Below are positions 13,376-48,673 of a stretch of DNA of 64,000 nucleotides, piece by piece. Origin of the DNA: Candidatus Levyibacteriota bacterium. Lineage in GTDB: Bacteria; Patescibacteriota; Microgenomatia; Levybacterales; UBA12049. The notes under the pieces were generated by a model. The model did no database searches. It was not told where the DNA came from and worked only from the letters and a program-made list of their open reading frames with translations. Where the stretch lies: the NCBI GenBank assembly GCA_029260905.1, contig JAJDCH010000011.1:512-64511 (forward strand), given 5' to 3'. Numbering within the stretch: the stretch's first letter is position 1; each line of letters begins with the position of its first letter. A program made the translations under genes and the position numbers.

Positions 13376-13433
13376 AATTTAAGATTAAACGATAAATTGC
13401 TCTATGTCAAGTAGAGTTTACATCTAGCCTAGT

Positions 13434-19705: not shown

Positions 19706-19706
19706 A

Positions 19707-20789: not shown

Positions 20790-20806
20790 ATTTTATAAAT
20801 TAAAAA

Positions 20807-21487
20807 TCAGGAATTATGAATTATGGAAAACACCTTTTCCATATCATCTTTTGTAAGTTGTCCTTCTGCCGATTGCTCGTCCAAGGTCTTCGGCACAAAA
20901 ACCATTTCATTTCCATATAGTGTTCCAAAAATTCTTGTCAGCAAACTTTTTTCACCCATTCCCAAAATAATATGCTTAATATTTTTATCCCGCAACTCCA
21001 AACCCAAATCCAAAAGCCTAATTGCGTCTTTTTCTGTTTTACAAAATGTTGATATTTTTACAATGTTTGGACTGTGCTGATCCATTGTATCAATTATTTC
21101 ACTCAATTTCTTGCTTTCTGGAGTTTCCTCATAATTATGATACGAAATAATTTTTTTAATTTTTAAATTATTATCTTTTATGTGCTCCAACTCCTCTTTT
21201 TGTGCTATATCAATATCAAGCATCGCATCGGTGTCTTCCAGAAATGAAACAATCTCAAGCCTTTTCTCAAGATTTATCTGTATTGGCTCCAGATTTTTCC
21301 TCCTGAAAAGAATTATCAATTTTTCTCTCAATTCCTCACTCAATTGACTAATAAAATTAGTATCAATCTTATCAACATAATCAATCCAGACTTCAAAAAA
21401 ATCATACTCGTGTTTGTGTTTTGAAATCATTTCCAACACATCATCTTTTGAATTTTTAATAATTGGCAAACAATAATTTATTTTCAT
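20807..21487 (-). CDS. aroD: 3-dehydroquinate dehydratase, type I
   Basis: ISYHNYEETP and ILGMGEKSLLTRIFG are AroD-like blocks. Confidence 0.7.
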   Translation of the reverse strand: MKINYCLPIIKNSKDDVLEMISKHKHEYDFFEVWIDYVDKIDTNFISQLSEELREKLIILFRRKNLEPIQINLEKRLEIVSFLEDTDAMLDIDIAQKEELEHIKDNNLKIKKIISYHNYEETPESKKLSEIIDTMDQHSPNIVKISTFCKTEKDAIRLLDLGLELRDKNIKHIILGMGEKSLLTRIFGTLYGNEMVFVPKTLDEQSAEGQLTKDDMEKVFSIIHNS

Positions 21488-21490
21488 ATT

Positions 21491-22318
21491 TTATTCTTCT
21501 CTTAATGCTTCAAGGAGTGCGTCTCGCATAATTTTTTCTGGTGCTTCAACTCCCGTATACATCCTGAACTGTTCAATTCCCTGGTGAAGAAGCATCTCAG
21601 AACCATACACGATTTTTGCGCCCTTTTTATTTGCATTTTTCAACAGTTTTGTTTCGTGTGGATTGTAGACTGCATCTAAAACGATATGTTTTTTCTCAAT
21701 CAAATTTTCAGGAAGAAAGAGTTTATCCACTTCAGGACTCATTCCAACAGATGTCATATTCAAAATAATATCTATTTCTTTTATTTTTTCTACATCCGTT
21801 AAAGGAAAGTATTCACAGTCAAAATCCTCAGCAAGTTTTTTTGCTTTTTCTACTGTCCTATTAAAAATGCTTACCCTTGCTCCTTTTTTGATAAGTCCGT
21901 AAACAGCAGCCCTTGCAGCACCACCTGCTCCCAAGACAGCCGCTTTTTTCCCGTTAATTTCTGTCACATTTTTAAGAGAATTTACAACGCCAAGCCAGTC
22001 AGTATTGTACCCTGTTAATCTTCCATTATCGTTCACAACCGTATTTACTGCTCCAATTTCTTTTGCGGTATCATCTATATTATCCAAAAAATTCATTATT
22101 TCCTGTTTGAAAGGAATTATCACACTCACCCCTCTTATCTGCATCGCTTTTACTCCCTTCACAAAATCTTCCAAGTCCTCTATCTTCAGACTTGCTGAGA
22201 GGTAAACAAAGTCAAGTCCCAGTTCCTGATATCCTGCATTATGCATAATAGGTGACATTGATTTCCTGCCTAACCCTCCAATATTCATACATATTTTTGT
22301 GCTTGATGTTATTTTCAT
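21491..22318 (-). CDS. aroE: Shikimate dehydrogenase
   Basis: KSMSPIMHNAGY substrate motif and the GAGGAARA NADP-binding loop. Confidence 0.85.
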   Translation of the reverse strand: MKITSSTKICMNIGGLGRKSMSPIMHNAGYQELGLDFVYLSASLKIEDLEDFVKGVKAMQIRGVSVIIPFKQEIMNFLDNIDDTAKEIGAVNTVVNDNGRLTGYNTDWLGVVNSLKNVTEINGKKAAVLGAGGAARAAVYGLIKKGARVSIFNRTVEKAKKLAEDFDCEYFPLTDVEKIKEIDIILNMTSVGMSPEVDKLFLPENLIEKKHIVLDAVYNPHETKLLKNANKKGAKIVYGSEMLLHQGIEQFRMYTGVEAPEKIMRDALLEALREE

Positions 22319-22809
22319 TATTTTATTTTTACTACTATATCCTCTACTACTTCATCAACTTTTTTATCATCGGTTGAGATTTCAAAATCTGCATATTTAT
22401 TATACAAAGCTTTACGCAAATCATACAGCGCTTTTGCTTTTTCCTTATTTTCAAAAAGAGGACGCGGAATCTTTGGATTGATTCTTTTTAGAACTGTTTC
22501 AAAACTTGCAGTAAGCGCAACTATCAAAGAGTTCTTTTTCAGATTTTTAACATTCTCATCTCTCATAACCACACCACCACCAGTCGAGATTACACCCTTG
22601 GTTGTGTCTCTCAGATCAGCACAAACTTTAGATTCATATTTCCTAAAAAGCTCTTCACCACCAATTTCAAAAATTTCTTCAATACTCATACCTGCCTTCT
22701 TAACAATCAAATCATCCATCTCGATAACATGCGTATCAAGTCTTTTGACAAGAACTTGTGCTACTGTACTTTTACCAGTTCCCATAAATCCTATCAAAAC
22801 TATTTTCAT
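22318..22809 (-). CDS. aroK: Shikimate kinase
   Basis: P-loop GFMGTGKSTV; 163 aa. Confidence 0.85.
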   Translation of the reverse strand: MKIVLIGFMGTGKSTVAQVLVKRLDTHVIEMDDLIVKKAGMSIEEIFEIGGEELFRKYESKVCADLRDTTKGVISTGGGVVMRDENVKNLKKNSLIVALTASFETVLKRINPKIPRPLFENKEKAKALYDLRKALYNKYADFEISTDDKKVDEVVEDIVVKIK

Positions 22810-24089
22810 ATTTCTTCCTCCTCTATTTTAATTCCTATTTCTTTTAATTTTTTCCAAAAATCAGGAAATGATTTGCTAACAACTTCTGGATTATTTATAG
22901 TTATTCCATCAATTTTTGTACCCGCAACAGCAAAACTCATCGCCATCCGATGATCTCCATATGTATCAATTGCTGCTGATTTTGGGACACCGCCATGGAT
23001 AATAATTGAATCTTCAGTTGTATTTGTTTTAATTCCCATTTTTGCCAATTCTTCCTCAACTGCTTTTACCCTTTCTGTTTCTTTATGTCTTAAAGTCTTA
23101 ATTCCTGTTATTTTTGTATCACCTTTTGCAAACGCAGCAAGCACAGAAAGGGTTTGAGCCTGATCGGGACAATTGTTCATATTTATATTAATTGGTGATA
23201 TTCCCTTGCCTACAATTGTTATCTCTTGTTCTCCAAAATTAATCTCCTGCCCCATCTTCTCAAGAATTTTTAAAAAATTTATATCCGCTTGGACTGATTT
23301 GGGATTAACATTTTTAACTGTAATTTTTGATTTGGTAAGCGCTGCAATTGCAAAAAAATACGACGCGCTTGAAAGATCTGTTTCAACTAAATATGAATTA
23401 GCATCATATTCATTACCCAAAATCAAATATTCTCTATAATTATTATTTAAAACTTCAATTCCAAATTGATTCAAAATATCAATTGTCATATCAACATATG
23501 ACTTTGAAACCTGCTCATTTTTTACATTAATTTTTTCAATCCCTGCAATAGGCGCAATCATAAGAAGCGAACTTAAATACTGGCTACTCAAACTTCCGTT
23601 TATGCTTATTTCTTTTTTACCCAGATCTGCTGATACAACACTTACAGGCGGAAATCCTTTTTCTCCAAGATAATCTATCTTTGCGCCAAGTTCTCTCAAT
23701 GCATCCACCTCATCACCAATCGGTCTCTTATTTAGCCCTTCAAGTCCATAAATCTTTTTAACGCCTGGCACTATTATTGAAAGTGCTAGAATAAATTTCA
23801 GAGTAATTCCAGAAAGACTTGCATTTAAATTATAACTACCTTCCTTGACATCTCTTATATCACCAACAACTTCAACAGAATCTTCTTCTTCAACAATTTT
23901 TATTCCCAGAGATTTCAAGCAAAAAATCATTGCTTTTGTGTCATCACTGATCAGCGGGTTTAAAATCACAACTGGCTTTTTTGTAAGTGTTGCCAAAAGC
24001 AAAGCTCTTATTGTATAGCTTTTTGATGAAGGTATATTAATTGATGAATCAATTGATTCTCTGAGCGGATGTATTGTAATTTTTTTCAT
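22806..24089 (-). CDS. aroA: 3-phosphoshikimate 1-carboxyvinyltransferase (EPSP synthase)
   Basis: N-terminal PSSKSYTIRALLLA and the overall EPSP synthase fold; 427 aa. Confidence 0.9.
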   Translation of the reverse strand: MKKITIHPLRESIDSSINIPSSKSYTIRALLLATLTKKPVVILNPLISDDTKAMIFCLKSLGIKIVEEEDSVEVVGDIRDVKEGSYNLNASLSGITLKFILALSIIVPGVKKIYGLEGLNKRPIGDEVDALRELGAKIDYLGEKGFPPVSVVSADLGKKEISINGSLSSQYLSSLLMIAPIAGIEKINVKNEQVSKSYVDMTIDILNQFGIEVLNNNYREYLILGNEYDANSYLVETDLSSASYFFAIAALTKSKITVKNVNPKSVQADINFLKILEKMGQEINFGEQEITIVGKGISPININMNNCPDQAQTLSVLAAFAKGDTKITGIKTLRHKETERVKAVEEELAKMGIKTNTTEDSIIIHGGVPKSAAIDTYGDHRMAMSFAVAGTKIDGITINNPEVVSKSFPDFWKKLKEIGIKIEEEEI

Positions 24090-25177
24090 TTTGCCACATA
24101 GGATAAAGTTTTTTTTAAATTTTCGTCCGAAACATTTCTATCATAGACTCCCACCCCAATATTTTTTAACAATGTAAAATTAATTTTTGTAAATTCATTT
24201 TTTTTATCAGACTTCATTTTTTCAATTAAATTTTCGATCTCAAAACCAGATACACCTGTAGGAAGTCCTGCGTCAATAATCGCTGTTTCAATCTTTTCAA
24301 ACTCCTCCTGAGTTAGCAAGCTCTCGAGCACAGACAACTTGGCCTCAGCCACCATACCTATACTTATCGCTTCACCATGAAGTAAAGGATTTAAGGTCTC
24401 AAGACTCAGTGCCTCAAACGCATGACCTATCGTATGACCAAAATTCAAAAGCTTTCTTAACCCCATTTCATTTTCATCAGAAACAATAATCTCTTTTTTT
24501 ATCTCTATTGATCTATAAATCAGATCAACCAATTCTTCTTTGTCAAAACCTTTTAAAGATTTTGCAGTCACTTTTTCAAAATAATCCTTATCTTTAATAA
24601 GACCGTGTTTTATAATCTCTGAAAAACCTGACAAAAACTCTCTCTCTGGAAGACTGTCCAAAAAATTTACATCTATAATCACACTCATTGGTTGAATAAA
24701 TGTTCCAATTAAATTCTTAATATTCCCAAAATCAATTCCTGTTTTACCACCCACACTTGCATCAACCATTGACAAAAGAGTAGTTGGAATATTTAAGAAA
24801 TCAATTCCCCGCATATATGTACCTGCGGCAAATCCTCCCATATCGGTAATTACTCCCCCTCCCAGATTTATGACAAGTGATTTACGGTCAAATCTGTTCT
24901 CCAGAAGCGTCTTCCAGATTATTTCAATTGACTTAATGTTTTTTGATTTTTCACCTGATGCAAGAATTATGGAAACAGAATCTTTTGGCAAAACCAATAA
25001 TAATCTATCAAGAAAAAGCGACTTTATGTTCTCATCGGTTATTACTGCAATCTTTGAATATTGTGAAAGATCAACAACTGCTGAGAGCTTCTCAATAAGT
25101 CCCTTATCTACAAAAATCCCGTACTGACTTTGTCTGTTCAAAATGGTTATTGTTATTTGTTTCATATTATTCACCAA
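24086..25177 (-). CDS. aroB: 3-dehydroquinate synthase
   Basis: LGGGVITDMGGFAA and HTIGHA metal-binding motifs. Confidence 0.9.
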   Translation of the reverse strand: MVNNMKQITITILNRQSQYGIFVDKGLIEKLSAVVDLSQYSKIAVITDENIKSLFLDRLLLVLPKDSVSIILASGEKSKNIKSIEIIWKTLLENRFDRKSLVINLGGGVITDMGGFAAGTYMRGIDFLNIPTTLLSMVDASVGGKTGIDFGNIKNLIGTFIQPMSVIIDVNFLDSLPEREFLSGFSEIIKHGLIKDKDYFEKVTAKSLKGFDKEELVDLIYRSIEIKKEIIVSDENEMGLRKLLNFGHTIGHAFEALSLETLNPLLHGEAISIGMVAEAKLSVLESLLTQEEFEKIETAIIDAGLPTGVSGFEIENLIEKMKSDKKNEFTKINFTLLKNIGVGVYDRNVSDENLKKTLSYVAK

Positions 25178-26096
25178 GCTTTAAGAAATAACTGTTTATT
25201 TTCGAAACACTTAAAAGCTTTTTCCTAGATAGTTTTCTCTTGTAATTTTTTATCTCAGAACCTGTTGGAATTGCAGAAACATTTCCAACCCGCCTACATT
25301 GCATTGCAGCAATAGAGTTGGCAAATCCTGCAGAATCTCTCAAGCTCCACTTCTTTATTATACCGTATGTGAATGCGCCTCTGTATATATCTCCTGCTCC
25401 AGTTGTATCAACTACCGATACCATTCTTGCCGGTATAAGATCGGTGTTTTCTCCATCATAAATAATGCTTCCAAGCTCACCCAAGGTAATGACAAAAGCC
25501 TTGCCACAGATTTTATACAAACAATTGAGACAAGAGCTAAAATCACGCTTGTTACAAAAGTTAGCAATTGAGTCAATTGGAATAATTGGATAGTCAGCAT
25601 GCCTCATCATATCTTTTACAAAGCTAGTTACCTCGGTTGAGGGATCTATTATTATCTTCGCTGATTGCTTTTTGTTTTTTACTATTTCATAAAAAGCCTT
25701 TCTCTCATGTCTGTCGATAATAATAAAATCAAATTGCTCAATAAATTTCTTTTCCATCTTTTCAATTGCTCTATGCTTTACTGGTCCTCTTATTTTTTTT
25801 CTTTGCCCTGAAATCGGATCAATTAAAATTGTGTTTACTTTAGTGTTATTTTGAAGATTATTAATCGTTTTTATTTTTTCCTCCTTCAAGGTATTAATTA
25901 TCATCTCTCCCTCAGAATCATTTCCAACACTAGTTAGAAATGTACAATCTATCCCAAGTCGTGAAAGTAGAATCATTGATGTCAAAACAGGACCACCGAT
26001 ATTTCTTTTTTCTGTCTGCTCTTTTGCGCCTACAAAAAAGATATTATCTATAACTGATTCTCCAATTCCAAGTATTTTCATATTTGTTTTTGACAT
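25167..26096 (-). CDS. PfkB-family carbohydrate/ribokinase-like kinase, first gene of the aro operon
   Basis: DTTGAGDIYRGAF ATP-binding motif. Confidence 0.7.
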   Translation of the reverse strand: MSKTNMKILGIGESVIDNIFFVGAKEQTEKRNIGGPVLTSMILLSRLGIDCTFLTSVGNDSEGEMIINTLKEEKIKTINNLQNNTKVNTILIDPISGQRKKIRGPVKHRAIEKMEKKFIEQFDFIIIDRHERKAFYEIVKNKKQSAKIIIDPSTEVTSFVKDMMRHADYPIIPIDSIANFCNKRDFSSCLNCLYKICGKAFVITLGELGSIIYDGENTDLIPARMVSVVDTTGAGDIYRGAFTYGIIKKWSLRDSAGFANSIAAMQCRRVGNVSAIPTGSEIKNYKRKLSRKKLLSVSKINSYFLKLGE

Positions 26097-26124
26097 AAAA
26101 AAACCTCCCTATTTATGGGAGGTT
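26097..26124 (-). terminator. Intrinsic terminator/attenuator hairpin directly 5' of the PfkB-aro operon ATG
   Basis: On the minus strand, CCTCCC-ataaata-GGGAGG (extendable to 8 bp) is followed by UUUUUUU and then ATG. Confidence 0.55.
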
Positions 26125-26160
26125 ATACTTTATAGCGCTTTAACACGCCAAACTACCTCC

Positions 26161-26211
26161 CTAGGAAGTAAAGTAAAACCAAATCTTGACTAGTTGCTGA
26201 ATATTTTTCAT
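26161..26211 (-). promoter_or_regulatory. Candidate 16-aa aromatic leader peptide (MKNIQQLVKIWFYFTS) of the aro operon
   Basis: ATG lies 12 nt downstream of the -10 (transcript may be near-leaderless). Codons run W-F-Y-F immediately before a UAG stop that abuts GGGAGGU, which is complementary to the 5' arm of the terminator. Confidence 0.45.
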
Positions 26212-26222
26212 ATGACTTTCAG

Positions 26223-26251
26223 ATTATAAACCTACCTGCCTCAAAAATCAA
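26223..26251 (-). promoter_or_regulatory. Sigma70-like promoter for the aro-trpS operon, internal to the trp-aro supercluster
   Basis: On the minus strand, TTGATT-17nt-TATAAT sits 9 nt downstream of the trpA stop. Confidence 0.5.
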
Positions 26252-26259
26252 GACTACGC

Positions 26260-27048
26260 TTAGAAAACCATTTCTTTCAAAAATTTCGAAACATTTTTTT
26301 CAATCTCATTCTCTTTTGAATCTCTAATAACATCAATTATTGCTGATCCAATTACAGCAATTTCGGCTTTACCTAAAAGTGAGCCAATTTGTTCTTTGCT
26401 TGAAATCCCAAAGCCGACTGCAATCGGAATTGAGAAAAACTTTTTTATTCTTTCCAGATTTTTACTCAATTGAGAATCTAGATTCTCTTTTACACCAGTG
26501 GTGCCACGACGTGACGTGACGTAAACAAAACCCTCTGCCTTTTCTGCATTAAGCTTCACCCGATGATCAGGTGAGAAAGATGAAATAACCTGAATATTGT
26601 AAAGCTTGTACTTTTGACAATATTCAAGCAGATGTTCATCTCCTTCTTCATCAACTGGCATATCAGGAACAATTATCCCAGATGCACCAGCCTCTTTTGC
26701 ATCTTTGCAAAATTTTTCAACTCCGTATTTAAATACAATATTGTAATAACACATAAAAAGAAGTGGGATTTTAATTTCCTTAGCAAGCTTTTTCATAACA
26801 ATGAAACTATCTTTTACTTTTATGCCTCGTGCTAAAGAATCCTCACATGCTTTCATTATCGTTGGTCCATCAGCCAGCGGATCAGAAAAAGGAATCTGCA
26901 ACTCCACCATGTCAGCTCCTGCTTCTTCCAAAATTTTAACTATCTCAATTGTTTTCTCAACCGATGGAAAACCAACAACAGTATGCGCCATTATCCCAAT
27001 CCTGCTATCATTTTTGATTTGTGCCAATTTTTGATCAATCAAATTCAT
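26260..27048 (-). CDS. trpA: Tryptophan synthase alpha chain
   Basis: TrpA TIM-barrel blocks (ELQIPFSDPLADGP and GFGIS). Confidence 0.9.
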   Translation of the reverse strand: MNLIDQKLAQIKNDSRIGIMAHTVVGFPSVEKTIEIVKILEEAGADMVELQIPFSDPLADGPTIMKACEDSLARGIKVKDSFIVMKKLAKEIKIPLLFMCYYNIVFKYGVEKFCKDAKEAGASGIIVPDMPVDEEGDEHLLEYCQKYKLYNIQVISSFSPDHRVKLNAEKAEGFVYVTSRRGTTGVKENLDSQLSKNLERIKKFFSIPIAVGFGISSKEQIGSLLGKAEIAVIGSAIIDVIRDSKENEIEKNVSKFLKEMVF

Positions 27049-27055
27049 ACAACTC

Positions 27056-28279
27056 CTAACTCCCTATTCCTAATTCACTGATATATTCTTTTAGGAACTC
27101 GTAAAACTTTTTATCATTAAATGCCTTTGCAAGTATAAACAAATCCTTGTCTCCTCTTCCAGATAAATTTACAACAATTACCTTTTCTTTACTAAGAGTT
27201 GGTGCCAATTTTAGTGCATAAGAAACAGCATGTGCTGATTCAAGCGCAGTAATTATTCCCTCGGTTTTTGATAAAACATCAACTGCCTCAACTGCCTCCA
27301 TATCAGTTACACTGACAAAACCAACTCTTTTTTTATCATGTAAAAGACTTAGCTCTGGACCAATGCCTGGATAATCAAGACCTGCTGAAATACTGTGAGT
27401 CTTTTGGAGTTGTCCATCGCTGTCTTGAAGAAAATAAGATTTATAACCTTCAACTACTCCAACACTGCCTGTTGGAAAACGCGTTGCATTATCACCTATT
27501 TTTTTTCCTCTTCCACCTGCCTCAACGCCGATAAGTTTTACTGATTTATCTTTTATAAAATTAGTAAAAGCACCCATCGCATTGCTTCCACCACCTACAC
27601 AGGCAACTACATAATCAGGCAGTAAGCCCTCTGTTTCCCTGAGTTGTTTTCTTATCTCACTCCCAACAATTGACTGAAAATCCCTATTCATTGTTGGAAA
27701 AGGATGCGGACCAACAACTGATCCAAGAAGATAATGCGTATCCTCCACATTCTCAATCCAGTCCTTAATCGCCGCATTTACTGCATCTTTTAATGTCTTA
27801 CTACCAAAACCAACAGGCGCCACTTTTGCGCCAAGTCTTTCCATCAAAAAAACATTTGGTCTTTGTCTTTTTATATCTTCTTCTCCCATATAAACTGTGC
27901 ATGCAAATCCAAGTTTTGCAGCAACTGTTGCAGTTGCCACCCCATGCTGACCTGCACCAGTTTCAGCAATAAGTCTTTTTTTACCAAGTCTTTTTGCGAT
28001 AAGTGCTTGTCCTAGACAATGAGTTATTTTATGCGCGCCTGTATGATTAAGTCCTTCATTTTTCAGATAAATCTTGGCACCCCCTAATTTTTCAGTCAGG
28101 TTTTTGGCAAAAATAAGAGGTGTCGGACGACCAGAGTAATTTTTCAAAAGATCTTCAAACTCCTTTTCAAATTTTTTATCCTTTTTTGCATCAATATACG
28201 CATTCTCCAACTCCTCAAGAGCTGGAATTAACATCTCCGGTACATACGCTCCTCCATATTTTCCAAAATGACTTTTCAT
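27056..28279 (-). CDS. trpB: Tryptophan synthase beta chain
   Basis: PLP lysine motif HTGAHKI and the GGGSNAMG segment. Confidence 0.9.
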
Positions 28280-28896
28280 AAATCTGCCCCCTTTGCATTT
28301 CTTATAAAACTTTTTATCTTTTTCAAGTCCTGTATCCCATCTGTTTCAACTCCCGATGCAACATCAACAATTTGTGGATATACTTTTTTTATAACATCTG
28401 CCACGTTTTCAGGACTGAGTCCTCCGGCTGATATCAGGGGAAACTCTTTTGCAAGTATCGCAACCTTTTCAAGATTTAACATAGGTCCTTCACTTTGCTT
28501 TATTCTATCAACCAGATAATACTCAACATCATACTTACTCATCTTAGCTCTAGCTTCTTCAAGATCAAAATTCCCCGGAAATCTGAAAGCTTTAATGACT
28601 TTTATCTTTATCTGATTTGTATATTCCGGTGTTTCATCGCCATGCAACTGTGCATAATCAAGATTGCAGTCTTTTATTATTTTCTGGACTATATCAAGAG
28701 GCATGTTTTGAAAAACACCAACCAGTTTTATTTTTCCTTTCATTTTTTTCCCTATTTCTATTGCAGTTCCCATATCAACTGTATGTGTTTTTATTAAGGG
28801 CATAAAAACCATTCCCAGAAATTCAGCCCCTTCAGAAGCTGCTAACTCCGCCACTTCAAGGCTTCTGGTTGCACATATTTTTACTTTTACATTCAT
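28276..28896 (-). CDS. trpF: Phosphoribosylanthranilate isomerase
   Basis: [10 protein letters not shown]...GMVF; 206 aa; position between trpC and trpB. Confidence 0.8.
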
Positions 28897-29702
28897 ATAT
28901 TTCTTAAACCATCAATAAACTCTCTTACATTTTCTGCCTGCATTAGACTTGTCCCAACCAACACCCCCGTTGCTCCAGCTTTTTTGTATTTCTCAACTTC
29001 ATGTTTGGAATTAATACCCGAGAATCCAAGTTTTATAAAATTGTTAGGAATTTTATTCAAGAGATTGCATGCATTGTCAACATTAATTTCAAATGTAGAT
29101 AAATCACGCGCGTTAACAGCAATAATTGACGTATTGGTAGAGAGCGCTTTTCTAAAATCCTCATCGCTTTGAATTTCAACAACTGGTTCAACGCCTAACC
29201 TCCGACAAAGATTTACATATTTATTTAGAACTTGTCCTTCAACGAGCCTTGCAATAAGTAAAATTGCATCCGAGCCAACACTTTTTGCTTCATAAATTTG
29301 ATACTCATCAATTACAAAGTCTTTTTGAAGAACAGGAAGTGTTGCCACTTTTAAAAGTTCAGGGATATCTGCTACTTCACCTTTAAAAAAACTTCTCTCA
29401 GTTATAAAACTAATCCCATCTGCTCCAGCCTCTTCATATTTTTTTGCTCTTTCAAGAAGACCAGATCTATCACTAAGAGTTGGATTTGAAGGTGATGCAA
29501 ATTTTATCTCGGCAATAAGCGCTATGCCACCCTTTTTAGGATTTTCTATTGCGACCTTGAATTTATCTGTCAGCTTAAACCTATCAAATCGGTTTATCAA
29601 TTCCCCAACCGATACATGCTTTTTCTTCTCCCTTATAACTTGTCTCGTATTCTCAACAATTTGAGACAAAATCTTATTTAAATTCTGCTTATTGCTAAAC
29701 AT
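28893..29702 (-). CDS. trpC: Indole-3-glycerol phosphate synthase
   Basis: IAEIKFASPS motif and the TIM-barrel fold. Confidence 0.85.
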   Translation of the reverse strand: MFSNKQNLNKILSQIVENTRQVIREKKKHVSVGELINRFDRFKLTDKFKVAIENPKKGGIALIAEIKFASPSNPTLSDRSGLLERAKKYEEAGADGISFITERSFFKGEVADIPELLKVATLPVLQKDFVIDEYQIYEAKSVGSDAILLIARLVEGQVLNKYVNLCRRLGVEPVVEIQSDEDFRKALSTNTSIIAVNARDLSTFEINVDNACNLLNKIPNNFIKLGFSGINSKHEVEKYKKAGATGVLVGTSLMQAENVREFIDGLRNI

Positions 29703-30705
29703 TTTGTGTCTCCTTTACTAAATCGCTAAGTATATTTTTTGCACTTCCACTATCAATTGATTCTTTAGCTAGTCTTATTCCATCTGAGATATTTCTTGCT
29801 TTTCCGGATACATACAGCGCAGCAGCGCTATTAAGAACTACGATATCCCGTCTTGGTCCTTTTACGCCATCTAAAACATCTGTTATGAATTTTGCATTTT
29901 CTGATAAATCCCCTTCAGCAATATCTGTTTTGGTAGACATTTCAAATCCAAAATCTTTTGGATCAATTTCAAAATTACTCATAACTCCTTTTTTAAATTC
30001 AAAAACATCAGTTTTACTAGATAAACTTATCTCATCCATTCCATCTCTACTTGCAACAATCAGCAGATGTTCATAGCCCAAACTTTTTGCTACTTTAATA
30101 AGTTTCTCTGCAATATCTTTACTTAGTACACCAATTATTTGTTTTTTAACAGTTGTTGGATTTAAAAAAGGTCCAAGAAAATTAAAAACAGTTCTTATTT
30201 TTAGGTCTTTTCTAACAACTACTACGTTTTTTGTCGCTGGATGAAAAAGCGGCGCAAAAAGAAAAACCATTTTTACTTTTTGCAAAACTTTTTTCGCTGC
30301 ATCTGCTGATAAGTTAATATTTACGCCCAGTTCCTCCAAAACATCAGCGCTTCCACACTTACTACTTGCTGCTCTATTACCATGCTTAGCAACCGGCACT
30401 CCTGCGCCTGCTACTACAAAAGCTACGGCAGTTGAAATGTTAAAACTTCCTGATTTGTCTCCCCCAGTTCCACAAACATCGATTGCGCCGTCAAACTCAA
30501 TCTTAACCATTTTTTCCTGCATGGCTTTTACAAGACTTGAAATCTCAGATACTGTCTCACCCTTTATCGAAAGCGCAGTCAGAATAGCACCAGCCTGCAC
30601 TGGTGTTATACTTCCGTCTATTACTCCTTCAAGAAAAAAATTTATCTCCCCGCCTGTAAGATCTTTTTTTTCTATTAACTTATTTAATATCAAAATTGCA
30701 TCCAT
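29695..30705 (-). CDS. trpD: Anthranilate phosphoribosyltransferase
   Basis: DVCGTGGDKSGSFNISTAVAFVVAGAGVPVAKHGNRA. Confidence 0.9.
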   Translation of the reverse strand: MDAILILNKLIEKKDLTGGEINFFLEGVIDGSITPVQAGAILTALSIKGETVSEISSLVKAMQEKMVKIEFDGAIDVCGTGGDKSGSFNISTAVAFVVAGAGVPVAKHGNRAASSKCGSADVLEELGVNINLSADAAKKVLQKVKMVFLFAPLFHPATKNVVVVRKDLKIRTVFNFLGPFLNPTTVKKQIIGVLSKDIAEKLIKVAKSLGYEHLLIVASRDGMDEISLSSKTDVFEFKKGVMSNFEIDPKDFGFEMSTKTDIAEGDLSENAKFITDVLDGVKGPRRDIVVLNSAAALYVSGKARNISDGIRLAKESIDSGSAKNILSDLVKETQNV

Positions 30706-30707
30706 AA

Positions 30708-31304
30708 TTATTTATTTAAAAAATTACTCAATATCTGCTTACCTGTTTCTGTTGCAAATGACTCTGGATGGAATTGAATCCCCTCAATCGGATATTCTTT
30801 GTGTCTTAATCCCATTATCTCACCTGTATCAATTGATGATGCACTAATCTTTAAACAATCAGGAAGAAATTTTTCATCTGCTATTAATGAGTGATATCGC
30901 ATCACATCTATACCTTGCGGGATGTTTTTAAAAACACCTTTTTCATCATGCTTTATACTACTTGTCTTGCCATGCATTGGCACTTTTGCTTTAACCACTT
31001 TTCCTCCAAAATAATAAGCAATTCCCTGCATCCCTAAGCACACTCCAAGAATAGGAATAGTTTTTCCAAGATTTATCAAAACCTCAGCGCAAACACCGAA
31101 ATAAGTTTGATCTGATGGATCTCCAGGTCCGGGTGATATTATTATTTTATCGTAATTACTATTTCTTATCTCATCCAAACTGATCTCATCATTTCTGAAA
31201 ACATCAAGGGTAAAATAACTACCTTTTGCTTTCAATACCTCGCCAACATACTGATAAAGGTTAAATGTAAATGAATCGTAATTATCAATTATCAAAACTT
31301 TCAT
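30708..31304 (-). CDS. trpG: Anthranilate synthase component II (glutamine amidotransferase)
   Basis: Class I GATase triad context (GVCLGMQ and HPES). Confidence 0.85.
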   Translation of the reverse strand: MKVLIIDNYDSFTFNLYQYVGEVLKAKGSYFTLDVFRNDEISLDEIRNSNYDKIIISPGPGDPSDQTYFGVCAEVLINLGKTIPILGVCLGMQGIAYYFGGKVVKAKVPMHGKTSSIKHDEKGVFKNIPQGIDVMRYHSLIADEKFLPDCLKISASSIDTGEIMGLRHKEYPIEGIQFHPESFATETGKQILSNFLNK

Positions 31305-31322
31305 AGTCTTACTTTTTAAACT

Positions 31323-32690
31323 TTACAAGCTCTCAATTGTTTCTTGTATTGCTTTCAATTTGTTTTCTATCTCTTTGTATTCTCTCTTTGCAATCGAGTC
31401 ATAAACAATGCCACTTGATGTCTGAGTATATGCATAATCTCCTGATACAAAAAGAGTCCGTATCGCAATTGCAAAAGTGCAATCTCCATTAAATCCAAAA
31501 TGTCCGATTCCCCCTCCATAGGGACCTCGCGCTCCAGCTTCCAACCGATCTATTATTTTCATAGCCTCTATTTTTGGCGCGCCAGTTAATGTACCTGCGG
31601 GAAAATTGGATGCAAGAGCCGAGAACATATCTTCATCTTTCTTGATAACACCTGTAATCTCGCTTGATATGTGCTGAACATGACTAAATTTTTTAACACT
31701 CATTAGATCCCGTATCTTAACACTGCCAAATTTTGCAACACGCCCTATGTCATTTCTATGCAGATCAACAAGCATATTATGCTCAGCCCTCTCCTTCTCA
31801 TCACTTAAAAGCTCTCTTGCCAATTTTTTATCTTCCATACCGTCTTTACCTCGTTTTATTGTTCCAGCAAGTGGACGTGTCACCATTTCTCCATCTCTTA
31901 AGGAAAATAAAAGCTCAGGACTTGAACCGATTATTTTTTTTTCTAGGAATTTTACGTAATACATAAATGGAGACGGGTTGCTTTTACGCAAATCTTCATA
32001 AACACTCAAAACATCTCCATTTATTTGATATTCTGACTTCATACCAACAACACATTGAAAAGTGTTACCTTTGCCAATCTCTTCTTTTATTTTTCCGACC
32101 ATCTCTTCATGTTTTTGCACATCAAGCGAATTTTTTATAAATTTTGCAGCTATTTTTTTCTCCTCAAGCTTTTCATCAATTATTTTTTTTATTTTTTCTG
32201 ACCGATCATAATCGTAATAAAAATAAAAAAGCTCATTTGTCTCTTTATCAAAAATAAGTCCGTCTGTATAAACCCCAAACATAAACTGATCAAATTTATC
32301 ATTTATCTTCAAATTCAGGGATGACTCAAAATAATTTGCTGCTTCATAACTTATGTATCCTATCAAACCACCTGCATATTCTCTGGTAATTGTCTGCTCT
32401 GGCATCATCTCTCTTAATGATTCGTAAGGATTGTCAACAGAGAAAATCTCATCATCAATTTTTAAGTTTTTATCTCGAGCAGAAATAATACGCTCAGGAT
32501 CAAAACCAATTATCGAATAGCGGGAAAACTTACCATCCTCACCGAGTGATTCAAAAATAAAACAAGTCTCATATGATTTTTCTATCTTCTGAAAAAGTTC
32601 ATAGAAATCCAAATCTTCAGCAATTTTTTTATAAACCGGTTTTTTTGATAATTTAATTTTTGGTAATTTTTTCATATTTATGAATATCAA
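31323..32690 (-). CDS. trpE: Anthranilate synthase component I
   Basis: Chorismate-binding blocks (LVDLHRNDIGRV and GAPKIEAMKII). Confidence 0.9.
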   Translation of the reverse strand: MIFINMKKLPKIKLSKKPVYKKIAEDLDFYELFQKIEKSYETCFIFESLGEDGKFSRYSIIGFDPERIISARDKNLKIDDEIFSVDNPYESLREMMPEQTITREYAGGLIGYISYEAANYFESSLNLKINDKFDQFMFGVYTDGLIFDKETNELFYFYYDYDRSEKIKKIIDEKLEEKKIAAKFIKNSLDVQKHEEMVGKIKEEIGKGNTFQCVVGMKSEYQINGDVLSVYEDLRKSNPSPFMYYVKFLEKKIIGSSPELLFSLRDGEMVTRPLAGTIKRGKDGMEDKKLARELLSDEKERAEHNMLVDLHRNDIGRVAKFGSVKIRDLMSVKKFSHVQHISSEITGVIKKDEDMFSALASNFPAGTLTGAPKIEAMKIIDRLEAGARGPYGGGIGHFGFNGDCTFAIAIRTLFVSGDYAYTQTSSGIVYDSIAKREYKEIENKLKAIQETIESL

Positions 32691-32699
32691 GGCTTGAAC

Positions 32700-32966
32700 T
32701 TATTTTATATAGTCAAATCTGCCTTTTTGAATTTCCTTTGATCCTCTTGTTACTGTCGCAACTCCAACCTTCAACCTTTTTGCAATCTTCTGATGCGGGA
32801 CACCACGCTTTAACATCTTTATGATTTGCAATCTATTTGGAATTTCATCTATCTCTTTCGAGCTTAAGATTCCAAATAAGAAATCTCGAAGCTCATCTTT
32901 ATCTTTCATCATAGAGATAGTATCTATCAACTCATTAAGATGTTTTCTATTATCTTTCATATCCAT
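32700..32966 (-). CDS. TrpR-like DNA-binding protein, YerC/YecD family
   Basis: 88 aa. IAKRLKVGVATVTRGSKEIQKG matches the Trp_repressor/YerC HTH. It lies 9 nt upstream of trpE. Confidence 0.6.
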   Translation of the reverse strand: MDMKDNRKHLNELIDTISMMKDKDELRDFLFGILSSKEIDEIPNRLQIIKMLKRGVPHQKIAKRLKVGVATVTRGSKEIQKGRFDYIK

Positions 32967-32968
32967 TC

Positions 32969-32997
32969 ATTATACTAGTATACTGATATACAGTCAA
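32969..32997 (-). promoter_or_regulatory. Sigma70 consensus promoter with an embedded ACTAGT-centred palindrome (candidate TrpR-type operator) for the trpR-like-trpEGDCFBA transcript
   Basis: On the minus strand, TTGACT-17nt-TATAAT. The perfect palindrome TATACTAGTATA (32971-32982) lies between -35 and -10 and resembles the E. coli trp operator core GTACTAGT. Confidence 0.55.
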
Positions 32998-33004
32998 GTG
33001 GTAT

Positions 33005-33778
33005 TTATTTGAGGATGAACAAGAAGAATAAAATAGCAAGAATTATACGGTAAATTCCAAATGGTATAAACGTATGATGTTTTACAAATCTGATCAGAAA
33101 TTTAACAGCAATCATCGCAAAAACAAAAGATCCAATAAATCCAATTGATAAAACTCCCCACTCCTGTCCAGTAAATGAAAGATTGGTTTTTAAAAGATCA
33201 AGTCCTGTTGCAGCAGCCATTGTAGGTATTGCTAAGAGAAAGGAAAATTCGACTGCGGTTTTTCGCTTGGTTCCAACTATCATTGCTCCTATTATTGTTG
33301 CTGCAGCTCGCGATACACCAGGTACGATTGATAAGGTCTGAAAGATTCCAATCAATATTGCATTTTTCGTGGTTATTTTTTCTATTTCAGATACCTCCAG
33401 ATTTTTTTTCCCAAACCAATACTCTACTCCAATCATGATCACTCCACCAATCGCTAATGCCCATAAGGTCACAAATTCATTTCCGATCAGATAACTCTTT
33501 ATAAATTTATACAAAACAAGACCAACAATCGCTGTTGGGATAAACGCAGCAGCAATAGGCCTCCATGTTTTTTTATTCCCCCAAATTGTTTTCCAGTAAA
33601 GAAAAACAACTGCCAAAATTGCGCCAAGCTGGATAATTATTTCAAAGCTTTTGACAAAATCTGTCTGAGGAATATTTAATAATTTTGCGGTAAGGACTAA
33701 ATGTCCTGTTGATGAAATGGGAAGAAATTCGCTAACTCCTTCAACAATTGAAAAAATAAAGGCCTGAAAAAAATCCAT
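33005..33778 (-). CDS. uppP: Undecaprenyl-diphosphatase
   Basis: EFLPISSTGHL and SRSGATI-like (SRAAATI) motifs; 8 TM helices. Confidence 0.9.
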   Translation of the reverse strand: MDFFQAFIFSIVEGVSEFLPISSTGHLVLTAKLLNIPQTDFVKSFEIIIQLGAILAVVFLYWKTIWGNKKTWRPIAAAFIPTAIVGLVLYKFIKSYLIGNEFVTLWALAIGGVIMIGVEYWFGKKNLEVSEIEKITTKNAILIGIFQTLSIVPGVSRAAATIIGAMIVGTKRKTAVEFSFLLAIPTMAAATGLDLLKTNLSFTGQEWGVLSIGFIGSFVFAMIAVKFLIRFVKHHTFIPFGIYRIILAILFFLFILK

Positions 33779-38802: not shown

Positions 38803-39910
38803 AAGTATGGTTTCTATATTGAACAAAGACTTATTCCAGAAAGAAACTCAAAATGCCTCAAGGGGCTACTTTACTCTTGTGCAAAATCCAACAAAAGCTG
38901 AATTAAGGAACGGAATTTATAAGCCAAGATTAACCCTAACCAAAAGATTTAATACTTCGGGTAGATCTGAGTTGACCTTGTCTGTGGAACTCTCACTGCC
39001 AAAATTACTTTATGGAAACAACTTTGATGAGGTAAATGATGATGACTTTCCGATTGTCATAGACAAACTTAGTAATGTACTAAAAACAATGGGTGTAAGG
39101 GTGTTTAAGGAAATTCTCACATCAGCTCCTGTATCAGCTGTGCACTATTCAAAAAATATTCCCCTTACCGATGGCTCTACTCCTCATTACTTAATAAAGA
39201 AGATCAAAGAAGCAAACATTTCCTTAGCTCTTGATGTAAATCAAACTGATTACCGCAATGACGGACACAGTTATAAGTGGCACAGCAACTCTTACGAGGT
39301 GGCTTTTTATGACAAGATTAAAGATCTCGAAATGGCTGTCAAAAGCGATAAAAGATCTATAGAAAAAGATAATCGTTTACAACTCCACCTTTTCAACCAA
39401 ATAACTAAAAAACAAAAAACAGAAGTCTTACGGATGGAAGTAAGACTCAATAATAGACAAAAATTGAAGCAATTATTTAAGACTCTTAATATTGATAGTG
39501 AGCTCATTTTTAAGAGCTTGTTCAGTAAAGATATTTCTCAGTGCATACTCCTGCACTACTTAAGCGAAATAGAAAAACAGCGACCAAAGATACTAGACTA
39601 TTCCCCTTCCAACCCAACTTCTCTTCTAGCTGAAATTATTATCAGTAATCCCAATCTTGGAGCACAGAAAGTATTGCAGCTATTTGGATTAAAACAAGCT
39701 CTTGATACTATTCCTCCTCGTGAATTAAGAGTTATGCTTGGTAAATCTAGCAATAGAAGTTGGTACAGGTTAATCTCACAAACCAAAAACGTTGCACTCC
39801 CCAGTGTTAATAGCCCTTTTGAAGCTATAAGAAAAAACTTGATGGACTTTGAACTAGTAAAACTAGTTGATTTACAAGTCAAAATGTTAAATAATGATAA
39901 ATATAACTAA
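38771..39910 (+). CDS. Putative rolling-circle replication initiator (Rep_trans-like)
   Basis: YEVAFYDKIKDL and EVLRMEVRLNNRQKLK resemble the Rep_trans blocks FIRIYNK and LWRVEIELKR. The N-terminal IDTIKLTLD resembles the IDWLSFTF start. The start overlaps the SpoVG-like gene by 32 nt. Confidence 0.4.
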   Translation: MIDTIKLTLDKSMVSILNKDLFQKETQNASRGYFTLVQNPTKAELRNGIYKPRLTLTKRFNTSGRSELTLSVELSLPKLLYGNNFDEVNDDDFPIVIDKLSNVLKTMGVRVFKEILTSAPVSAVHYSKNIPLTDGSTPHYLIKKIKEANISLALDVNQTDYRNDGHSYKWHSNSYEVAFYDKIKDLEMAVKSDKRSIEKDNRLQLHLFNQITKKQKTEVLRMEVRLNNRQKLKQLFKTLNIDSELIFKSLFSKDISQCILLHYLSEIEKQRPKILDYSPSNPTSLLAEIIISNPNLGAQKVLQLFGLKQALDTIPPRELRVMLGKSSNRSWYRLISQTKNVALPSVNSPFEAIRKNLMDFELVKLVDLQVKMLNNDKYN

Positions 39911-40085
39911 TATGCCAGATGAGCAATATCACTCCATAGAAGAAGTCGCAAAGTTATTAAATGTGGCTTACTTAACGGTTTATCGTTGGGTAAAAAGTGG
40001 AAAGCTTCACGCTATTAAAGCTGGAAAGCAGTATCGAATAAATAAGGATGATCTAAATTCCTTTACTAGGATTAACAAAAAATAA
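39894..40085 (+). CDS. Excisionase/MerR-type HTH DNA-binding protein (Xis/AlpA-like)
   Basis: IEEVAKLLNVAYLTVYRWVKSGKLHAIKAGKQYRI. Confidence 0.7.
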   Translation: MINITNMPDEQYHSIEEVAKLLNVAYLTVYRWVKSGKLHAIKAGKQYRINKDDLNSFTRINKK

Positions 40086-42852: not shown

Positions 42853-44334
42853 ATGAAAGCTATCGTAATCGCACGAGTTAGTACAGAAGAACAAAAAGAG
42901 GCTGGTAACTCCCTACCCGCACAAATTGCTAGGCAGAAGAAGTACTTTCAGAGTAAAGGATACCTGATAGAAAAAGAGTTTAGCTTTGATGAAAGTGCCT
43001 ACAAGAATAAAAGAGATGATTTTGACAATATATTGGACTATGTCCTTTCCCAGAAGGAAAAAATCGCAGTAGGATTTGATAAGGTTGATAGGCTATCCCG
43101 TAACATCTTTGATAAGCGTGTTTCTTTTCTTTACGAAAAGGCATTAAGAGATGAGATTGAAATACATTTTGTATCTGATGGTCAGGTTATAACAAGCCAT
43201 TTATCTGCAGTTGAAAAGTTTAATTTTAGTATAAGTCTTGGTCTAGCAAAGTATTATTCTGACGCCATAAGCGATAATGTTAAGCGTGCTCAAGAACAAA
43301 TGCTACGAAATGGGATCTATCCTAGCCGTCCCTCTTTTGGATATAAACGAGCTCCAATAACTAAAGATAAAACAGAAATTGTAGTTGATGAATATGCTTC
43401 TGTAATAGTAAGAAAAGCATATGAGCTTTATGCGACAGGTAGTTTTTCATTGGATTTGTTACGAAAAAAACTCAAAGAAGACTACGGAGTTAATTGGTCG
43501 CATGGCTGGACTGATAAAATTCTAAAAGATCACTTCTACTACGGTGTAATGACTTGGAATAAAAAGCAGTATAACCATAGGTATACTCCTATTATCACAA
43601 AAGCATTATTTGACCAAGTACAACAAATTAAGGCGGGTTTTAATAAGAAACGCTTCAAATATGCTGGATTGCCTTATGTTTTTCGTGGCTTATTACGCTG
43701 TGGGCATTGTGGGCTGTCTATTACACCAGAAAAGCAGAAAGGACATGTCTACTACCATTGTACGCAGTATAACGGCAAACACGGAGCAGAATGGCTACGA
43801 GAAGAAGAAATTACTAATCAGATAGGAAGGGTATTTAAGAATCTACAGTTGCCAGAAGATACATTAAGGAAAGTCGTTGAAACATTAAACTCTACTCATC
43901 AAAACAAAATGGACTTTCAAAATAAGCAGTTTGATAAATTAACCAAAGAAAGGACTGTAACAACCAATATGATTGATAATCTTTATCTTGATAAGTTAAA
44001 GGGGCGTATTACTGATGATGAGTATGACAGGTTTTATCAGTCATTCCGTGAACAATTAAGTGATATAGATACTCGGTTGGCATTACTTCAAGAAGCAGAA
44101 GATAACTACTACATTACGGCTAAATACATATTGGATTTGGCAAATCGGGCGTATGATCTGTTTGTAAGTTCTGAACTTGAAGAAAAACGGCAGTTAATCA
44201 AACTTGTACTTAAGAACCTTAAATTAGAGGGAAAAACTGTTCAATTTGAGGCTGTTAAACCCTTTGATACACTACTATCGTATCAAGATTATCTACCTAT
44301 GCTCCCCCGCGAGGATTCGAACCTCGGACCTTGA
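42853..44334 (+). CDS. Large serine recombinase (resolvase catalytic domain, recombinase domain, zinc ribbon)
   Basis: AIVIARVSTEEQKEAGNSLPAQ contains the catalytic Ser motif. Recombinase domain and CGHCG...YYHC zinc ribbon follow. The last 33 nt overlap the tRNA-Asn 3' half. Confidence 0.85.
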   Translation: MKAIVIARVSTEEQKEAGNSLPAQIARQKKYFQSKGYLIEKEFSFDESAYKNKRDDFDNILDYVLSQKEKIAVGFDKVDRLSRNIFDKRVSFLYEKALRDEIEIHFVSDGQVITSHLSAVEKFNFSISLGLAKYYSDAISDNVKRAQEQMLRNGIYPSRPSFGYKRAPITKDKTEIVVDEYASVIVRKAYELYATGSFSLDLLRKKLKEDYGVNWSHGWTDKILKDHFYYGVMTWNKKQYNHRYTPIITKALFDQVQQIKAGFNKKRFKYAGLPYVFRGLLRCGHCGLSITPEKQKGHVYYHCTQYNGKHGAEWLREEEITNQIGRVFKNLQLPEDTLRKVVETLNSTHQNKMDFQNKQFDKLTKERTVTTNMIDNLYLDKLKGRITDDEYDRFYQSFREQLSDIDTRLALLQEAEDNYYITAKYILDLANRAYDLFVSSELEEKRQLIKLVLKNLKLEGKTVQFEAVKPFDTLLSYQDYLPMLPREDSNLGP

Positions 44335-44373
44335 AGTTAACAGCTTCCTGCTCTACCGCTGAGCTACAGGGGA
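44302..44373 (-). tRNA. tRNA-Asn (anticodon GUU)
   Basis: Folded by hand. Acceptor stem UCCCCUG/CGGGGGA, D-arm GCUC-AGCGGUA-GAGC, anticodon loop CUGUUAA, variable loop AGGUC, T-arm CGAGG-UUCGAAU-CCUCG, discriminator G, no encoded CCA. Confidence 0.8.
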
Positions 44374-48259: not shown

Positions 48260-48673
48260 ATGAAAAATACTTATATCAATATCCCCATCAGAAATGTAGC
48301 AGATACTGACAAGTTTTTCAGGGCGCTTGGAATGGAAAAAAATGAACAATTTGCAAGCGATGACACCACCAACGCACGAATTAATGATAATACTGTTTTG
48401 ATGCTTTTAGAAGACAAACGATTTGCAAGCTTTATCAAGCAAGAACCCAAAAAACTAGAGGGTGGCTTTATCGTCTCCCTGGAGTTTGAAAGTAAAGAAG
48501 AGGTTGATGCCATGTTTAAAAAAGCTATTGAAGCTGGAGCGACAGATACCACGAATTCAGACACAGCAGTTAATTTTATGTATGTTAAATCCATTAAGGA
48601 TATAAACGGGCATTACTGGGAGTTTTTTGTTATGTTGGGTCAAATGCCAACAGCTGAGCACCCCGCAACTTAA
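48260..48673 (+). CDS. VOC-family (glyoxalase/bleomycin-resistance fold) protein
   Basis: Beta-alpha-beta-beta-beta module pattern with a C-terminal HYWEF block. Confidence 0.55.
   Translation: MKNTYINIPIRNVADTDKFFRALGMEKNEQFASDDTTNARINDNTVLMLLEDKRFASFIKQEPKKLEGGFIVSLEFESKEEVDAMFKKAIEAGATDTTNSDTAVNFMYVKSIKDINGHYWEFFVMLGQMPTAEHPAT

Follow-up and report, generated by a model that had tools for sequence, protein, structure and literature searches.

In a stretch of 64,000 nucleotides (nt) of contig JAJDCH010000011.1 from a Candidatus Levyibacteriota bacterium, hereafter called the window, a small gene of the Trp_repressor family stands directly in front of trpEGDCFBA, and its promoter contains a site that we predict to be its own operator. 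The explanation we favour, with a probability of about 0.8, is that this gene encodes a TrpR-type, tryptophan-responsive and autoregulated repressor, which would act on an array of CTAG-centred units in its own promoter and thereby control a leaderless mRNA of the regulator and trpEGDCFBA; the sequence anatomy, the fold, the conservation of motif and register and the linkage to trp genes are shown, and we infer binding, co-repressor, start point and leaderless translation. As far as the literature shows, this would be the first textbook TrpR-type switch documented in bacteria of the Candidate Phyla Radiation (CPR); in fact, no description of TrpR operators in CPR/Patescibacteria was found in the searchable literature.

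According to this model, when tryptophan is plentiful, dimers of the holo-repressor (one, possibly two in tandem) would occupy the array, which is formed by TATCAGTA, TACTAGTA and a degenerate third unit (~32967-32990) and would run from the 3' half of the spacer, via the −10 box, to the start point, embedded in the regulator's own near-consensus sigma-70-type promoter. One dimer would sit on TATCAGTA and TACTAGTA; a second one might lie in tandem next to it, covering the −10 box and the start point, and RNA polymerase would be excluded. A single leaderless polycistronic mRNA for the repressor and TrpEGDCFBA would in this way be turned off, which amounts to negative autoregulation; when tryptophan falls, the repressor would leave and the strong promoter would fire.

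The Promoter and Its Palindrome

The minus-strand interval 32967-33004 is the whole 38-nt gap between the stop codon of uppP/BacA (33005) and the annotated ATG of the regulator (32966), and reads ...cacTTGACTgtatatcagtatactagTATAATgaATGgatATGaaa... from 5' to 3' on the minus strand. The near-consensus promoter TTGACT-17-TATAAT described in the initial annotation is present at 32997-32969 on this strand, and with 11 of 12 consensus positions it is the joint best of 33 promoter-like sites in the 12 kb scanned. The perfect palindrome TATACTAGTATA, reported there to lie in the spacer, exists as well, but only in part within the spacer, of which it takes the last 8 nt; its remaining 4 nt are the beginning of the −10 box. 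If the flanks are included, it becomes a 20-bp imperfect palindrome (32967-32986) with 18 of 20 matching positions.

Taken by itself, the palindrome was ruled out as a significant feature: perfect 12-bp palindromes number 26 in the window, where first-order Markov simulations predict 25.6, and ACTAGT occurs 9 times for an expectation of 9.7. The case, therefore, rests on position and on conservation across species.

Conservation in Related Loci

The relatives of the regulator, 48-68% identical to it, come from CPR/Patescibacteria and mainly, within the Microgenomates, from Levy-, Roizman-, Curtiss-, Gottesman- and Pacebacteria. For the comparison, the DNA 5' of the regulator gene was aligned for 80 genomic loci, all of CPR/Microgenomates origin. 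The motif cTTGAC(A/T) precedes the regulator gene in 78 of them. Anchoring the alignment on the −35 box gave 76 promoters (75 loci and the window) with the consensus cTTGACA aaTACTAnyr TACTAGTA TAmTAGTAy, in which cTTGAC is present without exception and the −10 box TATA(A/C)T is found at positions 23-28, counted from the −35 box. Three units in 8-bp phase are recognisable, at positions 9-16, 17-24 and 25-32, and the family operator can be described as 8-bp-phased TACTAGTA units with the consensus rTACTAGTATACTAGTAy. The information content of these promoters is high at spacer positions 17-22 and, after the −10 box, at positions 29-32, where promoters alone are not conserved. The window palindrome corresponds to positions 17-24 (TACTAGTA), the best-conserved block outside the promoter boxes; judged from this alignment, TATACTAGTATA is one CTAG unit of a larger, predicted multi-unit operator with 8-bp phasing.

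A weight matrix was then built from 66 other loci, leaving the window out. The site at 32972-32989 scored 18.7 bits, compared to 11.6 bits for the next unrelated match in the 64 kb and to a maximum of 15.8 bits over 20 shuffled windows. In the 560 kb of related loci scanned, 74 of 80 loci had a match of at least 13 bits in the 140 nt that precede the regulator, and such matches were almost absent elsewhere; two of the six loci without a match are at contig ends. Absence of the palindrome from homologous loci had been named in the initial annotation as a refuting observation, and what we found is the motif at the same promoter position in nearly all of them. Together with its being the sole matrix site in 64 kb, this argues for the proposal made there of an operator with an E. 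coli-like CTAG core in the regulator's own promoter, and for autoregulation as its probable consequence. The matrix revealed no further operator copies in the window, neither at the aro operon nor at the gene of the Trp/Tyr-type tRNA synthetase nor elsewhere, and in the related loci no second operator of at least 13 bits before trpB or trpE where a gap follows the regulator.

These data also bear on the idea that the palindrome is a product of chance in AT-rich promoter DNA, in front of a gene that is simply strongly expressed or co-transcribed with uppP and has no operator at all. Palindromes and ACTAGT at chance frequency are what this idea predicts, and TATA-rich palindromes easily arise around a TATAAT box. 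On the other hand, chance would have to account for a motif kept at the same positions, those in the spacer and after the −10 box included, in 74 of 80 loci with regulators only 48-61% identical to that of the window, and for a matrix match that is unique in the window and above all shuffles. We consider it extremely improbable.

The reverse approach, a search of metagenome contigs for the exact 16-mer TACTAGTATACTAGTA, returned 120 matches. Eleven of them are located 3-32 nt upstream of a Trp_repressor gene, two are on contigs with a non-adjacent one, and for 107 the retrieved contig has no such gene; according to a rough estimate, the number of matches away from Trp_repressor genes is about that expected by chance for such a collection. 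Thus, the reverse search supports specificity only through the 11 adjacent cases. Among these matches, trpEGDCFBA comes after a regulator of 43% identity in locus L116, and trpE and trpG come after the regulator in L176. As a side observation, the L116 regulator (13380-13780, minus strand) has the reading helix GVETVSRGA and a perfect GTACTAGTATACTAGTAC upstream, which seems to be placed 3' of the likely −10 box and not over it.

The Predicted Window Operator and the E. coli trp Operator

The interval 32972-32989 is the predicted seat of one repressor dimer, and 32964-32981 is a possible tandem site for a second one (Table 1). The register equivalent to the latter is the strong one in most relatives. 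In the window, the third, downstream unit is degenerate (TAATGAAT) and the upstream unit is the clade-specific variant TATCAGTA, and for these two reasons the best two-unit site is shifted upstream by 8 bp relative to that of most relatives. The variant TATCA(G/C) recurs in a Levybacteria-like clade that comprises the closest relative, L003, which also has uppP upstream of the regulator; from this distribution, the variant appears to have been inherited and maintained. The window operator is weaker than the family norm.

The similarity to E. coli, proposed in the initial annotation for the ACTAGT core and the trp operator half-sites, extends much further. The CPR consensus GTACTAGTATACTAGTAC and the symmetric E. 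coli trp operator GTACTAGTTAACTAGTAC differ only at the two central bases. Moreover, the gamma-proteobacterial TrpR motif is TGTAcTnGTnnACnAgTACA (PMC9413887), and the family consensus rTACTAGTATACTAGTAy fits every specified position of it, that is, GNACT/CTAG half-sites 8 bp apart; the window itself has one perfect unit and one TCAG-variant unit. The E. coli trp promoter used for the comparison, GAGCTGTTGACAATTAATCATCGAACTAGTTAACTAGTACGCAAG..., was found at 100% identity in 3692 E. coli genomes, in which it sits immediately 5' of trpL, its final three bases being the trpL ATG. In E. coli the −35 box TTGACA is followed by a 17-nt spacer ending in ACTAG, by the −10 box TTAACT and by AGTAC; the CPR consensus has TTGACA, a 17-nt spacer ending in ACTAG, TATA(A/C)T and AGTAy, and the window has TTGACT, a 17-nt spacer ending in ACTAG, TATAAT and GAATG. 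The predicted window operator spans spacer, −10 box and start point in the register of the E. coli trp promoter.

A motif that overlaps core promoter elements could also be read by some other factor, such as a different regulator or a SpeI-like restriction-modification system acting on ACTAGT, which is a known restriction site, or be an unusual promoter element of CPR RNA polymerase. This is very unlikely, given that in the related loci the motif stands almost exclusively before Trp_repressor genes, that other putative leaderless promoters of the window are devoid of it, and that it matches the operator bound by the E. coli homologue, a protein with which the reading helix is shared.

The Regulator Is a TrpR-Like Protein

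The window protein matches the Pfam family Trp_repressor (PF01371) with 66.9 bits over residues 8-84 (cut-off 27). The initial annotation, which assigned to it a Trp_repressor/YerC-YecD helix-turn-helix, was right on the family; the YerC type does not hold in view of the TrpR-like helix and operator and of the score with the NCBIfam YerC/YecD model (TIGR02531), 40.1 bits against a cut-off of 42.2. Two of three relatives just pass this cut-off (42.6 and 42.7 bits) and the third fails (34.2 bits). With the NCBIfam TrpR model (TIGR01321) the window protein reaches 47.9 bits, below the equivalog cut-off of 67.25, and relatives 44-65 bits; in all four proteins, the window protein and the three relatives, the TrpR model outscores the YerC/YecD one. 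A profile comparison was non-discriminating (E-value of 6.7e-13 with E. coli TrpR and 4e-12 with HisR), and the top matches by sequence in the PDB are the HisR-type structures 3KOR and 3G1C, then E. coli TrpR, the whole-sequence identity being 27-29% with the former type and 22% with the latter.

In the AlphaFold2 model (predicted local distance difference test score 93.8) the protein has five helices and the helix-turn-helix TrpR fold. Its best match in the PDB is the complex of E. coli TrpR with a half-site, 1TRR, with a template modelling (TM) score of 0.83 and a root-mean-square deviation of 1.6 Å, and the top 42 PDB matches of the structure search are all TrpR or TrpR-like chains. TM scores are 0.80-0.83 with E. 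coli TrpR and 0.74-0.78 with HisR-type structures.

The reading helix is GVATVTRGS in the window protein, GIATITRGS in E. coli TrpR (sequence 100% identical to PDB 3WRP) and STATISRV in HisR. In the set of E. coli DNA-contacting residues (I79, A80, T81, T83, R84 and R69), the window protein keeps A80, T81, T83 and R84, has V in place of I79 and aligns its K60 with R69. G68, T71, T73, R74, G75 and S76 do not vary among 24 clade members, at least 90% of which also have A70. As for the tryptophan pocket, which we take to be lined in E. coli by T44, R54, T81, R84, G85, L41 and S88, the residues aligned with R54, T81, R84 and G85 (R45, T71, R74 and G75) are invariant in the clade; position 35, aligned with T44, is T in at least 90% of the clade and S in the window; L41 and S88 are replaced by G and E. 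HisR also keeps some of these residues. Gene context and this partial conservation of the pocket suggest tryptophan as the ligand.

Bacillus subtilis YerC has been identified as HisR, which represses his genes in dependence on histidine and recognises the motif cacTTTAnnnnnnTAAAgtg, and HisR, often autoregulated, binds a 20-bp palindrome (PMC9413887); the remark of the initial annotation that the YerC family is largely uncharacterised is, therefore, out of date. Neither 32967-33004 nor the family consensus contains TTTA-N6-TAAA, and no his gene is among the annotated neighbours, no search having been aimed at his genes. A YerC/HisR identity was discarded in view of operator, reading helix, model scores and gene context. 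The broader alternative would be a YerC/HisR-type regulator, or one with another ligand (histidine, indole, anthranilate or a different metabolite), that merely stands beside trp genes; this is suggested by the higher identity to HisR-type structures with 3KOR and 3G1C as best hits, by the two relatives that pass the YerC/YecD cut-off, by the many loci with other uncharacterised genes in place of a nearby trp gene and by the two pocket residues unlike those of E. coli. We judge it unlikely, since the operator is of the TrpR and not of the cacTTTAnnnnnnTAAAgtg type, the helix is GVATVTRGS and not STATISRV, the TrpR model scores higher, and the neighbours with assigned functions are trpB, trpEGDC, trpS and TrpD-like genes, with no annotated his gene. 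We propose that the window protein belongs to a third PF01371 clade, which, to judge from these alignments, combines a YerC-like short N-terminal half with the reading head and operator of TrpR. Its family label should be corrected to TrpR-like, not YerC/HisR-like.

Probable Start Codon and Leaderless Transcript

The −10 box ends (32969) 2 nt before the annotated ATG at 32966 and 8 nt before a second ATG at 32960. With a start point predicted at ~32962, the annotated ATG would be outside the transcript, and the second one fits. Counted from the T of TTGACA, the distance to the ATG is 35-40 nt in 66 of the 76 family promoters, the two window ATGs being at 31 and 37, and homologues begin at the position of the second Met of the window protein. 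Likewise in 66 of 76, the −10 box ends 6-11 nt before the ATG and leaves no room for a Shine-Dalgarno sequence. The mRNA is, thus, probably leaderless and translated from the second ATG, and the annotated start codon of the regulator is probably wrong.

Across the window, a Shine-Dalgarno-like motif precedes only 13 of 57 long open reading frames (ORFs), and several genes have a −35/−10 pair in which 6-9 nt separate the end of the −10 box from the ATG, for example those at 8545-10686(-), 14103-15119(+), 48260-48673(+), 57637-58347(-), 60811-61893(-) and 61924-63732(-). Judging by this geometry, leaderless expression seems to be common in the organism.

Genes Linked to the Regulator

By tblastn and Pfam, trpB, trpE(GDC...) or a gene for a class-I Trp/Tyr-type tRNA synthetase (trpS) is directly 3' of the regulator in at least 29 of the 80 loci; trpB, which occurs in two types of ~55% and ~33% identity, follows it in at least 16. 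Control of the trp genes is supported by this linkage and by the position of the regulator at the head of trpEGDCFBA in the window. A TrpD-like/HAD (haloacid dehalogenase) gene is by the regulator in two or three loci, other loci have Pfam-less families, and in about half of the loci no trp gene is seen near the regulator. A trp repressor gene at the head of some CPR TrpRS operons was reported in 2017 (PMC5370408).

Several points weigh against the explanation we favour. About half of the loci have no nearby trp gene, and the ligand could differ in parts of the clade. The window protein is under the TrpR equivalog cut-off, its profile distance to E. coli TrpR and HisR is about equal, and the pocket positions L41 and S88 are unlike those of E. 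coli. In the window operator, with one perfect CTAG, a TCAG partner and a degenerate third unit, affinity may be low. Finally, read-through from uppP could bypass promoter occlusion: no terminator-like site was found in 32967-33004 between uppP and the promoter, and with none intervening it is possible that transcription from uppP continues into the regulator operon. A repressor bound at the promoter might, in turn, be a roadblock to it.

In some relatives the regulator is found in other surroundings. In L070 (560-4273) and L078 the trpR-like gene has no promoter of its own. In L070 it lies inside an operon which encodes a TrpD-like protein of 496 aa, a HAD and a nucleoside hydrolase, the regulator and an M20 peptidase (names read from translations), with the operator-like GTACTAGTTTGCTAGTTT at the operon head, 3.4 kb upstream of the regulator; the same site is found at the same distance in L078 (near 562). 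An operon of this type may be a salvage pathway under the same control. L018, L037, L050 and L080 have a second member of the Trp_repressor family, a paralogue which shares 29-36% identity with the window protein and is ~0.1-1.5 kb from the first, in L018 adjacent on the opposite strand. Directly 3' of the putatively autoregulated regulator, Pfam-less families of ~350-425 aa (L004, L016, L023, L034 and L059), ~540-560 aa (L017, L040, L055 and L071) and ~310-350 aa (L041, L042 and L077) were observed; these families, in CPR genomes with no trp genes nearby, are candidate regulon members.

Most CPR genomes lack tryptophan synthesis. A tentative proposal, which we would not yet expect to hold, is that a CPR-wide TrpR-like clade has kept the E. 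coli-type operator and its exact register in a leaderless promoter, and that in the genomes without tryptophan synthesis the site may mark an unrecognised regulon for the salvage and uptake of tryptophan or indole. If true, its members would include the Pfam-less families (~220-560 aa), the operon of TrpD-like, HAD and nucleoside hydrolase genes, and trpS; the operator would be a ready-made probe for the functions of dark genes in uncultivated bacteria, and the repressor-operator pair would be unusually old, whether inherited or transferred between phyla. To our knowledge, transcription-factor binding sites are almost unknown in the CPR, and the window offers a well-supported predicted operator-regulator pair with an 18-24-bp site and a promoter directly testable in E. 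coli. The mechanism is a textbook one, and the gain is in breadth and annotation rather than in a new principle.

Layout of the Locus and Other Features of the Window

The features of the locus are collected in Table 1. The regulator and trpEGDCFBA follow each other on one strand (trp genes, 26260..32675), with gaps of at most 24 nt or overlaps. The adjacency of regulator and trpE reported in the initial annotation is correct; the distance of 9 nt is not, as it rests on a TTG start at 32690, and homologue alignment prefers the ATG at 32675, which gives 24 nt. No terminator-like site was found in the short gaps between trp genes, the two minus-strand hairpin matches of the scan both being inside trpB, and an Rfam scan of the region gave no RNA element such as a T-box or a trp leader, its sole match being a tRNA at 44302-44373.

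Table 1. Positions of the regulator locus, its predicted control elements and neighbouring features in the window.
Feature	Position	Strand	Basis or remark
−35 hexamer TTGACT	32992..32997	-	promoter scan, 11/12 match for the −35/−10 pair
−10 hexamer TATAAT, spacer 17 nt	32969..32974	-	promoter scan
Perfect palindrome TATACTAGTATA, putative central CTAG unit of operator	32971..32982	.	sole exact copy in 64 kb
Best operator register ATATCAGTATACTAGTAT, units TATCAGTA + TACTAGTA	32972..32989	-	matrix, 18.7 bits
Weaker second register ATACTAGTATAATGAATG, over −10 box and start point	32964..32981	-	matrix, 10.4 bits
Predicted transcription start, ~32962, 7 nt after −10 box	32960..32963	-	promoter geometry; leader 0-3 nt
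Probable true start codon (second ATG)	32958..32960	-	homologue starts and promoter geometry
Trp_repressor-fold gene, annotated 88 aa	32700..32966	-	ORF, Pfam PF01371
Probable regulator coding sequence, 86 aa, MKDNRKHL...	32700-32960	-	homologue starts and promoter geometry
uppP/BacA, 5' neighbour, same strand as regulator	33005..33778	-	Pfam BacA, 243.9 bits
trpE	31323-32675	-	ORF translation, Pfam
trpG	30708-31304	-	ORF translation
trpD	29695-30705	-	ORF translation
trpC	28893-29702	-	ORF translation
trpF	28276-28896	-	ORF translation
trpB	27056-28279	-	ORF translation
trpA	26260-27048	-	ORF translation
aro operon leader	26097-26259	-	promoter TTGATT-17-TATAAT at 26251-26223

The trpR-like gene and trpEGDCFBA are at the head of a 15-kb aromatic supercluster (18078-32966, minus strand), whose further genes encode a PfkB-family kinase, AroB, AroA, AroK, AroE, a type I dehydroquinase, chorismate synthase, a class-I Trp/Tyr-type tRNA synthetase and a flavin mononucleotide (FMN) reductase; no 3-deoxy-D-arabino-heptulosonate 7-phosphate (DAHP) synthase was seen in it. 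Complete tryptophan and shikimate pathways are unusual in a CPR genome.

The aro operon, as had been suggested, uses a different device from that of the regulator-trp operon, namely a leader peptide with a Trp-Phe-Tyr-Phe (WFYF) run and a terminator. The leader ORF has 16 codons, MKNIQQLVKIWFYFTS; a GGGAGG segment is able to pair with the 5' arm of the terminator, a hairpin (26124-26102) with U7 after it, immediately 5' of the first gene. By its sequence, the arrangement resembles a ribosome-mediated attenuator that would respond to all three aromatic amino acids (fold z = -2.97). An ACTAGT at 26189-26194 is inside the leader peptide ORF, and no matrix match of at least 6 bits lies over it. 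Two further ACTAGT hexamers, 9 nt apart (39853-39867), are at the 3' end of a Pfam-less 379-aa ORF, again with no match of at least 6 bits covering them; they are directly followed by an excisionase-like HTH_17 gene (39894-40085), and the tRNA gene at 44302-44373 is on the minus strand. This arrangement may be a mobile-element junction.

Comparison with Known Systems

The E. coli trp promoter has in common with the CPR promoters the units centred on CTAG with a spacing of 8 bp, 16 of 18 bases of the consensus, the −10 hexamer at the operator centre and the operator register relative to the −35 and −10 boxes. On these alignments, E. coli and CPR bacteria share the TrpR reading head and its presumed operator almost base for base, and the promoter register is the same as well. 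Canonical TrpR places one dimer across two units, and E. coli trpR, as proposed here for the window regulator, is autoregulated. The two systems differ in that E. coli trpR is separate and far from the trp operon, which also has a leader attenuator, whereas in the window the regulator is the first gene of the operon, Rfam detects no attenuator and the mRNA is probably leaderless. Compared to E. coli TrpR (108 aa), the window protein (86-88 aa) lacks the N-terminal arm, and the identity is 22%.

HisR shares with the window protein the Pfam family, the fold, a similar length and a similar N-terminal half, but has a cacTTTAnnnnnnTAAAgtg operator, histidine, his genes and the helix STATISRV, where the window has a TrpR-type operator, trp genes and GVATVTRGS.

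The closest known architecture is that of Chlamydia trachomatis trpRBA, whose first gene encodes TrpR, a protein that responds to tryptophan and represses the promoter in front of trpR (PMC7755916, PMC6504234). The regulator comes first, as in the window, and is followed by trpB, as in many CPR relatives. Chlamydia differs by a long intergenic region, a second promoter and control by YtgR, whereas the window has the full trpEGDCFBA set and a gap of only 24 nt (or 9 nt) after the regulator.

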